From positions 360,933-424,932 of the forward strand of contig CBDIIA010000001.1 in assembly GCA_965279475.1 (NCBI GenBank): a stretch of DNA of 64,000 bases, in the 5' to 3' direction. The translations under genes and the position numbers were made by a program. The notes beneath the pieces were generated by a model that made no database searches, was not told where the DNA came from, and was given only the letters and a program-made list of their open reading frames with translations. Of this stretch, positions 3,097 through 34,550 are shown in pieces (position 1 is the stretch's first letter; every line of letters begins with the position of its first letter). This stretch comes from Pseudorhodoferax sp. GTDB taxonomy: Bacteria; Pseudomonadota; Gammaproteobacteria; Burkholderiales; Burkholderiaceae_C.

Positions 3097-4377
3097 ATGG
3101 ACAGACTATTGATTCGCGGCGGACGCCGCCTGCAGGGCGAGGTGCACATCTCCGGGGCCAAGAACGCGGCCCTGCCCGAGATGTGCGCAGCGCTGCTGAC
3201 GGCCGACCCGGTGACGCTGGTCAACGTGCCGCGCCTGCAGGACGTGCGCACGATGGTGGCACTGCTGCGCAACATGGGCGCGGTGGTCGAGCGCGGCGCC
3301 GATGGCCGCCTCGACATCGACGCGCGCTCCCTGCCCACGCCTGAGGCGCCTTACGAACTGGTCAAGACGATGCGGGCATCGGTGCTGGCGCTCGGCCCGC
3401 TGCTGGCGCGTTTCGGCCGTGCCCGCGTGTCGCTGCCGGGCGGCTGCGCGATCGGGTCGCGGCCTGTGGACCAGCACATCCGCGGCCTGCAGGCGATGGG
3501 CGCCGACATCGCCGTCGAACACGGCTACATGGTGGCCGGCCTTGCGCAGGGCCGCAAACGTCTGCACGGTGCGCACATCACGACCGACATGGTGACCGTC
3601 ACAGGCACCGAGAATCTGATGATGGCCGCCACCCTCGCCGAAGGCGAGACGGTGCTCGAGAATGCCGCGCAGGAACCCGAGATTCCCGACCTGGCCGAGA
3701 TGCTGATCGCGATGGGCGCGAAGATCGAAGGCCACGGCACGCGCCGCATCCGCATCGAAGGCGTCGACCGGCTGCGCGGTTGCACCCACCAGGTGGTGGC
3801 GGACCGCATCGAGGCCGGCACCTTCCTGTGCGCCGTGGCTGCGGCCGGTGGCGACGTGCTGCTGCGCCACGGGCGGGCCGACCATCTGGATGCGGTGATC
3901 GACAAGCTGCGCGATGCCGGCGTGCGGGTCAGCGCGGTCGATGGCGGCATCCGCATCCAGGCCGAGGCTGCGCCTCGGTCGACCCTGAAGGCACAGAGCT
4001 TTCGCACTACCGAATACCCGGGGTTTCCGACCGACATGCAGGCGCAGTTCATGACGCTGAACTGCATCGCCCAGGGCGCGAGCAAGGTCACCGAGACTAT
4101 CTTCGAGAACCGTTTCATGCACGTCAACGAACTGGTCAGGCTGGGTGCACACATCCAGATCGACGGCAAGGTCGCCGTCATCGAAGGCGTGCCGCGGCTG
4201 TCGGGCGCCACGGTAATGGCCACCGACCTGCGGGCATCGGCCAGCCTCGTGATCGCCGGCCTCGTGGCCGACGGCGAGACCGTGGTCGACCGCATCTACC
4301 ACCTGGACCGGGGCTACGACCGCATGGAAGACAAGCTGCGCGGCATCGGTGCCGACATCGAGAGAGTGAAATCATGA
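3097..4377 (+). CDS. murA: UDP-N-acetylglucosamine 1-carboxyvinyltransferase
   Basis: 426 aa; MDRLLIRGG...[12 protein letters not shown]-terminus and full-length MurA-like sequence. Confidence 0.95.
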
Positions 4378-32569: not shown

Positions 32570-32862
32570 GGTTTTCTCCTTGCATGCGTGGTGGGGAAAG
32601 GGTGCCGTTACAGCGTCGGCGGCGGACGATGAGTGCGATGGACCGGGCGTCACGCTGCGCGTCGGAAGCCACCTGTCGGTGGCCGCATCGGCTGGGCGTG
32701 GGCGCGGGCTGGGCGGGTCCAGCGTCGGACCGCCAGTGCTGACGGGCATCGGGCATCACGCACCCCAACACGGCAAGCCATGTTGGAGAGGCGATCCACC
32801 CGCTGCCCGCGTTCGGCATGGTCTTGCGACCGTTTCATTCGCTGGATTTGCAGTCCAGTGCT

Positions 32863-32930
32863 TGGAGCGGGAGTCGAACCCGCGACACACGACTGGTGAG
32901 GTCGTTGCTCTACCCGATTGAGCTATCCAA
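32863..32930 (-). tRNA. tRNA-Val(CAC)-like sequence, probably a pseudo-tRNA (5' acceptor strand mismatched at positions 1-2, C37, no encoded CCA)
   Basis: D arm GCTCAATCGGGTAGAGC, anticodon arm ACGAC-CTCACCA-GTCGT, T arm GCGGGTTCGACTCCCGC, 3' TCCAAGCA. Confidence 0.35.
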
Positions 32931-32985
32931 TGGTGGCGACCATCCGAGAATCGAACTCGGCGGCTTACGCCGCAATCCATTGATG
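32931..32985 (-). ncRNA. tRNA-like minihelix (7-bp acceptor CGACCAT/ATGGTCG, GNRA hairpin CGGCGTAAGCCG, T arm CCGAGTTCGATTCTCGG, 3' CCACCA) with no anticodon arm
   Basis: Read directly from the sequence. About 54 nt, abuts the tRNA-Val-like unit. Function unknown. Confidence 0.25.
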
Positions 32986-33133
32986 GTCGGTATCGGCCGA
33001 TTCCGGCGGCGCGGCATGTGCAGCATCGACGGACGGATCCGGATGCCGCACACCGGCGGGGCAGGCTTGCGCCAGAACCCCTGACCTGTGAGCGTTCGCC
33101 TTCCACAGCAGATGCGTGAGCGCCGGTGCAAGG

Positions 33134-33709
33134 TCAGCACAGGCGCGAGTTCTTCGGCAGTCGCGCGGCCAGCCACGTGTGCACGTCCGCGCGGATGTGC
33201 CGGCCTTCGAGCAGAAAGTCCTCGAAGCGGCTCGGCACATACGGCAGGTACAGCAGCGGCATGCGCGCTTCTTCCGGCGTGCGGTCGGCCTTGCGGGCGT
33301 TGCAGCCGCCGCAGGCGGTGACCAGGTTCATCCAGGTCCAGCGCCCGCCGCGCGATTCCGGCAGGATGTGCTCGCACTGCAGATCGCGCTCCGAAAAGCA
33401 ATGGCCGCAGTACGCGCAGGTCAGCCGGTCGCGGCGGAACAGCTTGCCCTTGCTGAACGCGGGTGCCACGTCGAATAGGTTGATGCGCGACGCGCCGTGC
33501 AGCGCGATGATCGGATGCACATCGATGACCGACTGGCGGCCGCGCGCGACATTGAAGCCGCCCCGCAGCGTGGCCAGTGGGCCGTCGCCGTCGACCCACG
33601 CCACGGCATCGACGGCCACGTGCGAGGCCGCATGCTCGAGCGAGATCCACGCCTGCGGCGTGCCCTGGATGTCGAGTTGCAGCACGTGGCTGTGGGTGTA
33701 CGGATGCAT
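33134..33709 (-). CDS. HNH endonuclease
   Basis: HNH core CAYCGHCFSERDLQCEHILPESRGGRWTWMNLVTACGGCNARK. ATG at 33709 with AGGAGG Shine-Dalgarno 6 nt upstream. Sits immediately downstream of tRNA-Leu. Confidence 0.8.
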   Translation of the reverse strand: MHPYTHSHVLQLDIQGTPQAWISLEHAASHVAVDAVAWVDGDGPLATLRGGFNVARGRQSVIDVHPIIALHGASRINLFDVAPAFSKGKLFRRDRLTCAYCGHCFSERDLQCEHILPESRGGRWTWMNLVTACGGCNARKADRTPEEARMPLLYLPYVPSRFEDFLLEGRHIRADVHTWLAARLPKNSRLC

Positions 33710-33745
33710 GGATGGCCTCCTTTCAGGCCGCTTCGTGGATGAGAC

Positions 33746-33830
33746 TGGTCCCCTCGGTCCGAGTCGAACGGACATGCCTTGCGGCCCCGGTTTCTGAGAC
33801 CGGTGCGTCTGCCTGTTTCGCCACGAGGGG
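33746..33830 (-). tRNA. tRNA-Leu (anticodon CAG), class II with long variable arm
   Basis: Acceptor CCCCTCG/CGAGGGG, anticodon arm CCGGT-CTCAGAA-ACCGG, T arm GTCCGTTCGACTCGGAC, ACCA end. Confidence 0.8.
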
Positions 33831-33854
33831 GCTTGCATGGATTGCGCATGCGCT

Positions 33855-33929
33855 TGGGGGTGACCGGCCGGAGTCGAACCGGCACCGGCGGGGTCACGAC
33901 CCGCAGCTCTGCCATTGAGCTACGGTCAC
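33855..33929 (-). tRNA. tRNA-His(GUG)-like gene with atypical features (C33 in anticodon loop TCGTGAC, one extra C before CCA, T rather than G at -1)
   Basis: Acceptor GTGACCG/CGGTCAC, D arm GCTCAATGGCAGAGC, T arm GCCGGTTCGACTCCGGC. Confidence 0.5.
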
Positions 33930-34029
33930 ACCCAAACGCACGCACATCTGAACTCTGCTCCCCGACGTTGCTCGGCCCCGCTGATGAACAGCCAGCTGTT
34001 CCGTGGTCGAATCGATCGGGGGGAAGATC

Positions 34030-34108
34030 TGGCGCCTCGTGCACGACTTGAACGTGCGACCCCCGGTGTCGTAGACCGGTGCTCTTGATTCCACTGAGCT
34101 AACGAGGC
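34030..34108 (-). tRNA. tRNA-Arg (anticodon ACG)
   Basis: Acceptor GCCTCGT/ACGAGGC, anticodon arm CCGGT-CTACGAC-ACCGG, T arm GCACGTTCAAGTCGTGC, GCCA end. Confidence 0.8.
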
Positions 34109-34550
34109 AAAAAAAAATTCCGGTGACGGGTTCCGGCGCCGCCCTATCTTTGCGGCCGGTTTCCACCCTCGATGCGCGAGCGCCACGAGGGCTTCCTGAT
34201 GTGTCCACTTCGGCTGTGCCCAAACGCGAGCATCCCGTCGGACGTGGTGTCTCGCTGCACGCAACCTGGCCAGGGATTGCGCACATCCCGCACCGCCAAC
34301 ACCATGTCGCGCGGCAACGGAGTGCAAGGACACACCCGAAGTGGAGCGGATGACGGCCCTCGTCCTGCCCCCTTGCGTGGAGCAGGACGTGACACCGTCA
34401 CCGCACAATTCTGCGAAGCCCGCCATCGGCCAGTACCGAGGCTTGCTTCGCGGCAGTTTGTTAAAGAGCGTCCACCGCTGCCCATCGGCATCGGTGCTGC
34501 GATCGATGGATCGATCGCGGGTCTGCGGCGATGCGCAGACCTGGGGTTGA

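Follow-up and report, generated by a model that had tools for sequence, protein, structure and literature searches.

The RNA between the HNH and SPFH genes

The window, the whole stretch of 64,000 nt of Pseudorhodoferax sp. DNA that was analysed, carries on its minus strand a short tRNA array, an HNH endonuclease gene and an SPFH-protease-RtcB operon. The subject here is the spacer between the HNH and SPFH genes, where an earlier interpretation made from the letters alone (the sequence-only reading) had flagged a cluster of tRNA-like pieces and hairpins at 32800-33133. Comparison with related loci showed these pieces to be the middle of one conserved, folded, putative non-coding RNA of ~510 nt, which holds two tandem tRNA mimics and belongs to the SPFH-RtcB operon. 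The genes and features of the locus are, from 5' to 3' along the minus strand:

34030-34108, minus: tRNA-Arg(ACG) gene (ARAGORN, Rfam)
33857-33929, minus: tRNA-His(GTG) gene (ARAGORN, Rfam)
33746-33830, minus: tRNA-Leu(CAG) gene (ARAGORN, Rfam)
33134-33709, minus: HNH endonuclease gene (Pfam HNH_5, E = 1.2e-15), immediately 5' of the spacer with the RNA
32570-33133, minus: HNH-SPFH spacer, 564 nt, holding the flagged tRNA-like pieces
32601-33113, minus: whole predicted structured non-coding RNA, ~513 nt (nhmmer, near-invariant MAFFT blocks, RNAalifold with per-pair compensatory counts)
31433-32569, minus: SPFH/Band-7 (slipin) gene (Pfam Band_7, E = 6.7e-29), the first protein gene 3' of the RNA
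30345-31373, minus: ClpP-like SDH-type serine protease gene (Pfam SDH_protease, 31.7 bits, barely over the 31.3-bit cut-off)
29098-30315, minus: RtcB RNA ligase gene (Pfam RtcB, E = 5.7e-127)

Relatives were obtained by scanning one genome per species, which gave 80 loci from Piscinibacter, Aquabacterium, Rubrivivax, Ideonella, Roseateles, Ramlibacter, Acidovorax, Delftia and others (cited below by L number). All aligned sequences came from Burkholderiales, and the context counts use the 69 loci with sufficient upstream sequence. Positions in the spacer are also given as q, where q1 is window position 33133, the first base after the HNH stop, and q equals 33134 minus the window coordinate. With the window spacer as nhmmer query, the spacer was recovered essentially end to end in ~78 of the 80 loci, and in every case SPFH followed it directly. 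When 74 full-length spacers were aligned with MAFFT, near-invariant blocks ran along the whole spacer, also beyond 32800-33133, and RNAalifold on this alignment predicted one multi-domain fold from ~33113 to ~32601 in which nearly every helix is supported by compensatory changes. The flagged interval is therefore present in the element and does not cover it completely. The RNA starts ~20 nt past the HNH stop codon and ends ~32 nt ahead of the SPFH start codon. Its modules follow in the 5' to 3' order 5' domain, tRNA-like element 1, tRNA-like element 2, an optional hairpin, the hairpin GGUC-GNAA-GACC and the 3' domain, and this arrangement is kept from Piscinibacter to Acidovorax, Delftia and Burkholderia. 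The sequence-only reading had left room for an unconserved remnant that no covariance model would match; the tRNA model matches in the spacer, and conservation extends to the ~78 loci given above.

The tandem core, formed by elements 1 and 2, has the following parts, those of element 1 being read from alignment A4:

32931-32989, minus: element 1, a miniature cloverleaf supported by covariation
32983-32989, minus: element 1, 5' strand of the acceptor, a 7-bp stem with 32937-32943
32973-32982, minus: element 1, 3-bp hairpin with a GG-containing UGGA loop
32961-32972, minus: element 1, 4-bp GNRA hairpin CGGC-GUAA-GCCG (CGGCGTAAGCCG)
32944-32960, minus: element 1, T arm with loop UUCGAUU
32937-32943, minus: element 1, 3' strand of the acceptor
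32931-32936, minus: element 1, tail CCACCA
32862-32930, minus: element 2, a probable b7a-tRNA (tRNA associated with band-7; ARAGORN, Rfam, A4)

Two alignments of this core were used. A2 is a MAFFT alignment fitted to no structure, and A4 is an alignment fitted to the covariance model. In A2, 86.9% of the cells were paired, against 37-46% with the partners slid by 1-3 columns. The covariation score was 0.31, against ~0.08 for the slid partners, and the observed values were reached by 0 of 500 shuffles. A4 gave 93.5% paired cells, and 28 of its 35 pairs changed on both sides. With R1, the covariance model built from A2, 77 family members scored 80.9-142 bits; each locus had a single one, in every case upstream of SPFH. 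Pairs of ordinary tRNAs that neighbour each other in the arrays scored 40-77 bits with R1, below the family members. Some adjacent array tRNA pairs reached up to 76.6 bits (L026:2487-2631 and other array positions), a result compatible with a derivation of elements 1 and 2 from two neighbouring array tRNAs. In the slide control over the three domains, 92.1%, 96.5% and 89.2% of the cells were paired, against 32-52% after sliding.

Inside element 1, the paired cells in A4 amounted to 95.7% in the acceptor, 80.8% in the small hairpin, 89.5% in the GNRA hairpin and 97.8% in the T stem; one pair of the small hairpin had the composition AU:15, UA:15, CG:14 and GC:13. The sequence-only reading had described this element as a minihelix lacking an anticodon arm. 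The unit of acceptor, T arm and CCACCA (32931-32989) stood, but it is a miniature cloverleaf, as the 3-bp hairpin and the GNRA hairpin, the latter listed by that reading as a separate item, lie between the 5' strand of the acceptor and the T arm. Across the family the tail mostly reads N-CCA; the discriminator varies, the CCA is nearly invariant, and in the window three extra bases make the tail CCACCA. In most members the CCA is followed by one pyrimidine, then UGGA-UA and then the D arm of element 2.

For element 2, ARAGORN called a tRNA-Val(CAC) at 32858-32932, and Rfam RF00005 (tRNA) gave 48.2 bits against a threshold of 29, with acceptor pairs 1-72 and 2-71 mismatched. Both calls agree with the earlier description of a tRNA-Val(CAC)-like body whose first two acceptor bases are altered. 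Its invariant D and T arms enclose a variable anticodon arm and a 5-nt variable loop, and the acceptor stem is short, with 4-5 bp. In A4 the D stem was 100% invariant, the anticodon stem was 98.4% paired with heavy covariation and the T stem was 100% paired. The 4-bp acceptor was 93.5% paired, and the fifth pair, present in the window, was paired in just 30.7% of the members. The elbow is canonical (U8, A14, G18-G19, T loop U-U-C-R-A), and the invariant D stem (UAGCUCA...GGUAGAGC) has the same sequence as the D arm of the YrlA consensus in the Rfam alignment. Element 2 is followed by neither a discriminator nor N-CCA. Its anticodon is not conserved: ARAGORN gave more than 15 identities among the relatives, and members with the identical stem ACGAC/GUCGU differ in the loop (CUGAUAA, CUCAUAA, CUCACCA, CUGAACC, CUUAAAA).

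The modules on either side of the core are:

32992-33113, minus: 5' domain (q21-142), a multi-helix junction closed by P1 (33105-33113 with 32992-33000)
33055-33086, minus: hairpin P4 of the 5' domain, with the variable tip GGCGCAAGCC at 33064-33073
33013-33054, minus: long hairpin P5 of the 5' domain (RNAalifold, per-pair counts)
32842-32858, minus: free hairpin CUGGA-CUGCAAA-UCCAG, resembling an anticodon arm; optional, present in some relatives and absent from others
32820-32831, minus: hairpin GGUC-GNAA-GACC (GCAA in the window; GGTCGCAAGACC), nearly invariant, its pairs 97-100% conserved in 74 sequences
32604-32817, minus: 3' domain, ~215 nt, closed by invariant GCCG (32814-32817) with CGGC (32604-32607)
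32742-32810, minus: variable-length hairpin of the 3' domain (per-pair covariation)
32611-32741, minus: long bulged hairpin of the 3' domain, ~130 nt (per-pair covariation)

The strings that the sequence-only reading had listed were all found at their places on the minus strand (GGCGCAAGCC at 33064-33073, CGGCGTAAGCCG at 32961-32972, GGTCGCAAGACC at 32820-32831 and the hairpin CTGGA-CTGCAAA-TCCAG at 32842-32858), but two of the pairings proposed for the 5' domain had to be revised. In the fold of a separate alignment (A5), 22 of the 32 pairs of this domain were maintained through changes on both sides, and its slide control gave 92.1% paired cells against 32-52%. Here GUGCGGCAU (33043-33051) covaries and pairs with AUGCUGCAC (33018-33026). 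The stem suggested between GCGGCAT (33043-33049) and ATGCCGC (33012-33018) therefore has both of its strings, but covariation gives this other pairing. The string CGGATCCG, read as a palindrome, is likewise present and is really the hairpin CGGA-UCCG-UCCG. The invariant AUGCCGCG pairs with two other upstream segments, forming junction helices. The tip of P4 is missing or replaced in many relatives.

Downstream of the core, the free hairpin of loci without an adjacent RtcR gene mostly has 7-nt anticodon-like loops with varying middle bases (CUACGAA, CUGAUAA, CUAUCAC, CUGUGAA and others). Relatives have other loops there, which makes its likeness to the selC anticodon arm of E. coli a probable coincidence. 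The 63 pairs of the 3' domain were paired in 89.2% of the cells against 34-47% after sliding, with 613 double-change cells against 117-150. The 3' domain closes ~30 nt before the SPFH start codon, and the AAGGAG ribosome-binding site lies outside the conserved helices.

The 5' strand of the closing stem of the 3' domain, GCCGAACG (32810-32817), matches the Y RNA motif GNCGAAN0-1G in ~50 of the 74 sequences, a motif that is common genome-wide. The nearly invariant hairpin matches it in its majority form GUCGAAAG and does not in the form of the window, GUCGCAAG. This G+C-rich 64 kb holds 79 matches against 54 expected. The Ro60-contact motif in vertebrate Y RNA is GGUCCGA. The two most conserved short blocks, GCCGAACG and GGUCGNAAGACC (32810-32817 and 32820-32831), resemble the Y RNA motif for Ro60 contact; the motif is frequent here and Ro60 is seldom nearby.

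Searches with known RNA families gave no other identity. Rfam at the gathering threshold over the whole window returned tRNA alone above threshold. The E-value scans of 32400-34300 and 32570-33140 did the same, and all these scans were free of tmRNA, group I intron, T-box, GOLLD and ROOL. ARAGORN found no tmRNA, standard or permuted, and the Rfam leader and riboswitch families had no match to the RNA. The tmRNA (permuted forms included), Y RNA and group I intron models that the sequence-only reading had named for scanning thus gave no match at threshold in ARAGORN or Rfam.

Genomic contexts, loop types and neighbouring genes

The RNA occurs in two main upstream contexts. An HNH gene lies directly upstream in 44 of the 69 loci, and 41 of these 44 have same-strand tRNA genes upstream of the HNH gene (at least 3 genes in 30 loci; the largest array has 20). 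In 15 of the 69 loci a divergent RtcR gene (Pfam RtcR and Sigma54_activat) is found upstream instead, with no adjacent HNH gene, and in the remaining 10 neither gene is adjacent. The RtcR loci are L033, L052, L063, L065, L068 and L071-L080 (Acidovorax, Delftia, Rhizobacter, Albitalea), with the promoter region at about 3350-3460. In five aligned RtcR loci a sigma-54-type promoter (GGCACGCAUCUGGCAAU or a close variant; GGCACGCATCTGGCAAT-like) ends ~10 nt before P1, which would place the transcript start at the beginning of the structure. No RtcR gene was present within the 4-kb flanks of the HNH-type loci or within the window. In the lineage of the window, a stress-type tRNA array and HNH precede the RNA and are fused to it, in place of an RtcR-controlled sigma-54 promoter.

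The sequence-only reading had tied a structured RNA or tRNA mimic to the RtcB and HNH proteins. The RNA itself and its link to SPFH and RtcB are supported in general form, as the RNA is conserved, covaries and is always upstream. The link to HNH is unsupported, because the 15 RtcR loci carry the RNA without an adjacent HNH gene and HNH travels with the tRNA array.

The loop type follows these contexts. The anticodon loop of element 2 has 7 nt in 57 of the 62 loci without adjacent RtcR, against 3-5 nt (mostly GNRA) in 13 of the 15 RtcR loci. The free hairpin is usually capped by a tetraloop in RtcR loci and is absent from many non-RtcR loci. In the RtcR loci and in B. cenocepacia, GNRA or UUCG tetraloops stand in place of the anticodon loops.

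The array of the window contains three genes (33746-34108, minus strand) for Arg(ACG), His(GTG) and Leu(CAG). Related loci have up to 20 same-strand tRNA genes 5' of HNH in a largely kept order (e.g., L003:453-2830; loci L001-L067), and the relative order Arg(ACG)...His...Leu(CAG) is common to the window and these arrays. Judged from this comparison, the three genes are the remnant of a longer array that has lost members relative to related loci. In tRNA-Leu(CAG) of the array, a GCAA tetraloop caps the variable arm and the CCA is encoded. Nine consecutive T (34109-34117) stand directly 5' of tRNA-Arg(ACG), where the terminator scan gave no call.

The scan showed no promoter-like or terminator-like site between HNH and SPFH, and the RNA is therefore probably co-transcribed with its flanking genes. 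Downstream, the SPFH homologues are 76-92% identical across Burkholderiales. RtcB follows in 61 of the 80 loci, and many of the remaining loci end early at contig ends. The SDH protease gene is present in only 13 of the 80. An RlaP nucleotidyltransferase gene (Pfam PF10127) was seen in 15 loci, downstream of RtcB where checked. A Ro60/TROVE-vWA gene lies downstream of SPFH in 3 of the 80 loci, namely L033:5164-6759 (between SPFH and RtcB), L052 and L061 (partial); tblastn gave no match to TROVE/Ro60 in the 64-kb window. The PADLOC defence models matched only the HNH domain (PtuB-like and similar) and none matched SPFH, the protease or RtcB, and among the solved structures of the PDB the SPFH and HNH sequences found just generic stomatin and HNH/Cas9-type relatives.

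Three Ideonella-type loci (L021:1673-2845, L037:1651-2823 and L054:1653-2825) have a second, divergent RtcB-like gene with 54% identity between the tRNA array and HNH, and an RlaP-like gene instead of RtcB after SPFH. Rhizobacter sp. UKL202a (CP050901.1) carries two RNA-SPFH copies (L050 and L052) ~2.8 Mb apart. Their tandem cores are identical (106.9 bits each), and RtcR adjoins just one of them.

Relation to known RNAs and operons

A tRNA-like RNA next to Band-7 and RtcB, the b7a-tRNA, was predicted by Burroughs & Aravind in 2016, according to the secondary description in bioRxiv 10.1101/312249. That description presents it without experimental validation and as probably functionally redundant with YrlA. 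The literature searched contained no laboratory validation of the b7a-tRNA, and Rfam has no family for it. Element 2 is probably this RNA. It is called a tRNA by gene finders and has Band_7 and RtcB downstream, likewise in related loci, and Ro60 is also in the operon in some relatives (L033, L052, L061), as that description has it (bioRxiv 10.1101/312249). The secondary description differs in having one tRNA-like RNA, whereas here a ~510-nt RNA includes element 1, the optional hairpin and closed 5' and 3' domains. The larger RNA and element 1 had no description in the searched literature, a scope that leaves the original 2016 account outside.

YrlA and the Y RNAs (PMC4201824; Wang et al. 2018, bioRxiv 10.1101/312249) are, like the RNA of the window, non-coding tRNA mimics of RtcR/RtcB operons. 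The D arm of element 2 is identical to the YrlA consensus and its T loop is canonical. The GNCGAAN0-1G-like motif in the 5' strand of the terminal stem that closes the 3' domain may be a further likeness to Y RNA but is only a lead, the motif being too common in this genome and not universal in the family. YrlA differs in that its tRNA shape is circularly permuted, its acceptor hairpin is closed and it has no free CCA, whereas element 1 has a CCA tail, and here each acceptor helix pairs with its own partner strand (95.7% for element 1 and 93.5% for element 2). A further difference from Y RNA is that Ro60 is near the RNA in just 3 of the 80 loci. A YrlA-like permuted topology was considered and rejected: its acceptor hairpin AUGGU-CGCC-ACCAU forms in the window alone and not in the relatives, and covariation favours the tandem model. 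On the spacer, the Rfam models YrlA and Deinococcus_Y_RNA scored 20.7 bits (threshold 69) and 19.2 bits (threshold 80), below threshold in both cases, and both matches span the T arm of element 1 and the D arm of element 2. Chen et al. 2014 (PMC4201824) warned that dimeric tRNAs mimic a YrlA match.

The upstream part of the locus resembles the cyanobacterial L-arrays, in which a conserved HNH gene lies beside a tRNA array with rtcB nearby, and which are co-induced by translational stress and horizontally spread (PMC8421152, 2021). Both have a tRNA array, HNH and RtcB downstream, and the RNA follows such an array in 41 of the 44 HNH-type loci. No structured RNA or SPFH is described between array and rtcB in the cyanobacterial case (PMC8421152). 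The HNH gene is upstream of the array there and downstream here, and the HNH proteins are likened by gene context only. Taken with the Y RNAs and the b7a-tRNA, the RNA is a richer form of the known tRNA-mimicking RNAs of RtcB repair operons.

Interpretation and rival explanations

The explanation that we consider probable is a conserved ~510-nt RNA that forms the leader of the SPFH-(protease)-RtcB operon and has two tandem tRNA mimics at its core, the second of which is the b7a-tRNA predicted in 2016. The RNA would be transcribed on the minus strand as the leader of this RNA-repair operon and would present tRNA-shaped surfaces to the operon proteins and to tRNA-handling enzymes. Such mimicry may make it a cofactor of the SPFH protein and RtcB or a scaffold for them, in a role like that of Y RNA for Ro60. 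Instead of this, or besides it, the RNA may be a decoy for tRNA-cutting toxins, that is, for anticodon nucleases. YrlA's tRNA-like domain has been proposed as a competitive inhibitor of anticodon nuclease (PMC7790460), and the decoy idea is compatible with the contrast between anticodon loops and tetraloops. RNase P together with 3' trimming may also cut the RNA at the tRNA-like junctions into smaller RNAs. Such processing, which would expose the CCA of element 1, is plausible because it is analogous to that of M. smegmatis YrlA (PMC4201824).

Several points weigh against this explanation. We infer binding to SPFH and RtcB solely from the gene neighbourhood, and the transcript, its ends and its processing sites are predicted. 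For part of the structure, the alignment behind the prediction also served for the pair counts and the slide control, and A4 is fitted to a model. The sample covers Burkholderiales only, so shared ancestry explains some of the apparent covariation. The identity of element 2 with the b7a-tRNA rests on a secondary description and was compared by description only. Folded alone, the window sequence has an energy only slightly out of the ordinary (z = -1.75 and -1.77); as this energy is weakly informative, the case rests on the comparative evidence.

A first alternative, tentative and clearly the less probable of the two, treats the ~510-nt transcript as a mere carrier. RNase P would cut 5' of each tRNA-like element and 3' trimming would halt at the CCA of element 1, so that the released small RNAs (the 5' domain, a mini-tRNA with a CCA end, the b7a-tRNA and the 3' domain) act separately. 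It overlaps the operon-leader explanation and differs solely in which molecule is active. The N-CCA of element 1 is nearly invariant and lies one nucleotide ahead of the acceptor strand of element 2, the 5' domain and the 3' domain each have a terminal helix of their own to close them, as independent modules would, and in the lineage of the window the RNA lies downstream of tRNA genes that need processing. MALAT1 mascRNA is a tRNA-like element that serves as an RNase P processing signal. As in mascRNA and M. smegmatis YrlA, a tRNA-shaped module here lies in a longer transcript, and its cleavage would give the RNA upstream of it a 3' end, which here would be the N-CCA of element 1. The Y RNAs of M. 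smegmatis are multi-RNA precursors (PMC4201824). Against the carrier idea, the acceptor of element 2 has only 4 bp, a difference from both of these RNAs, whereas RNase P cleavage has been seen only for YrlA with a 7-bp acceptor stem (PMC4201824). The processing here is predicted.

An unlikely alternative is a cis-regulatory leader whose structure, like a T-box, senses the status of tRNA or its damage and regulates SPFH-RtcB at transcription or translation. The position fits: the RNA occupies the 5' untranslated region of the operon, and no terminator precedes SPFH. The UGGA of element 2 is complementary to an N-CCA end, and since RtcR is absent from the window and from the 4-kb flanks of HNH-type loci, these would require another form of control. 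However, a terminator/antiterminator pair was not found, Rfam gave no match to a T-box or riboswitch, the AAGGAG ribosome-binding site is left outside the conserved helices, and the same RNA is retained where RtcR/sigma-54 control already exists. Its ~510 nt and two complete tRNA-shaped elbows also far exceed what known leaders need.

Very improbable is a working tRNA-Val(CAC) gene accompanied by decayed fragments of an eroding upstream array. The ARAGORN and Rfam tRNA calls speak for it, as does the loss of array members in the window relative to relatives, and the R1 matches to ordinary neighbouring tRNA pairs at 40-77 bits make descent from two array tRNAs plausible. A functional tRNA-Val gene was nevertheless rejected. 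In the window the first two acceptor pairs are mismatched, the family as a whole conserves only 4 pairs, neither a discriminator nor a CCA comes after element 2, and the supposed anticodon differs between close relatives and gives way to a 3-5-nt loop in 13 of the 15 RtcR loci. The supposed fragments covary and are conserved across genera, unlike decaying pseudogenes.

The scars of repeated site-specific integration at a tRNA 3' end with partial att duplications, which the sequence-only reading had offered as its second option, deserve almost no credence: the region is tRNA-rich with a mobile-looking HNH gene adjacent, and element 1 holds the T arm, acceptor 3' strand and CCA that integration usually duplicates, but the repeat search gave no att-like repeats, the direct repeats being generic T-arm similarities alone (17-22 nt, 80-88% identity), element 1 has a matching 5' acceptor strand that covaries with its 3' strand, and the identical arrangement recurs in ~78 loci of different genera with two upstream contexts.

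Within the operon-leader explanation, a bolder version, which we regard as doubtful, sees the RNA as a modular 'rechargeable' bait for tRNA-cutting toxins. The 7-nt loops would absorb or report the current anticodon nuclease, RtcB would reseal them, the SPFH assembly would hold the complex, and tetraloops would make the RNA nuclease-proof where RtcR senses the damage. The observation behind it is that in the array-fused lineages the three middle loop bases of element 2 and of the extra hairpin change rapidly, whereas the stems, and C-U as the first bases of the loop, are retained. If true, it would be a new class of RNA-based counter-defence and would assign a mechanistic role to Band-7/RtcB systems.

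RtcB repair operons are widespread, and we know of no established role for their non-enzymatic partners (Ro60 with Y RNA, Band-7 with b7a-tRNA). With the operon-leader explanation the predicted b7a-tRNA gains an architecture supported by covariation, a large multi-domain RNA with two tRNA mimics, one of which has an encoded CCA end. One of two control contexts also goes with the RNA, either an RtcR/sigma-54 promoter or a tRNA array of the stress type together with HNH, and the anticodon loops and tetraloops form a clean natural contrast that is directly testable.

Related loci occur in tractable hosts, namely B. cenocepacia (RtcR, SPFH, RtcB, RlaP) and E. coli (possibly a reduced version). In B. 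cenocepacia the order is RtcR, a sigma-54 promoter (CTGGCACGCTCCTCGCT; L082:5470-5500), a leader with the tandem core, SPFH, RtcB and an RlaP nucleotidyltransferase. The SPFH protein is 65% identical to that of the window, and the tandem core scored 77 bits with R1. In about 1629 of 5426 complete E. coli genomes (~30%) a slipin and nucleotidyltransferase (RlaP-like) pair lies between the DUF3811 gene and lysC. At this pair (L081:5683-5997, CP061233.1) a sigma-54 promoter, TGGCACGCTTCTCGCAAT, is followed by an unannotated leader of ~300 nt. Judged from its sequence, this leader may be a reduced homologue of the ~510-nt RNA. It scored only 11 bits with R1 and has CACCA, a T arm (TGGGTTCGATTCCCA) and the closing elements GTCAGC...GCTGTTAAGC (in RNA, GUCAGC...GCUGUUAAGC).

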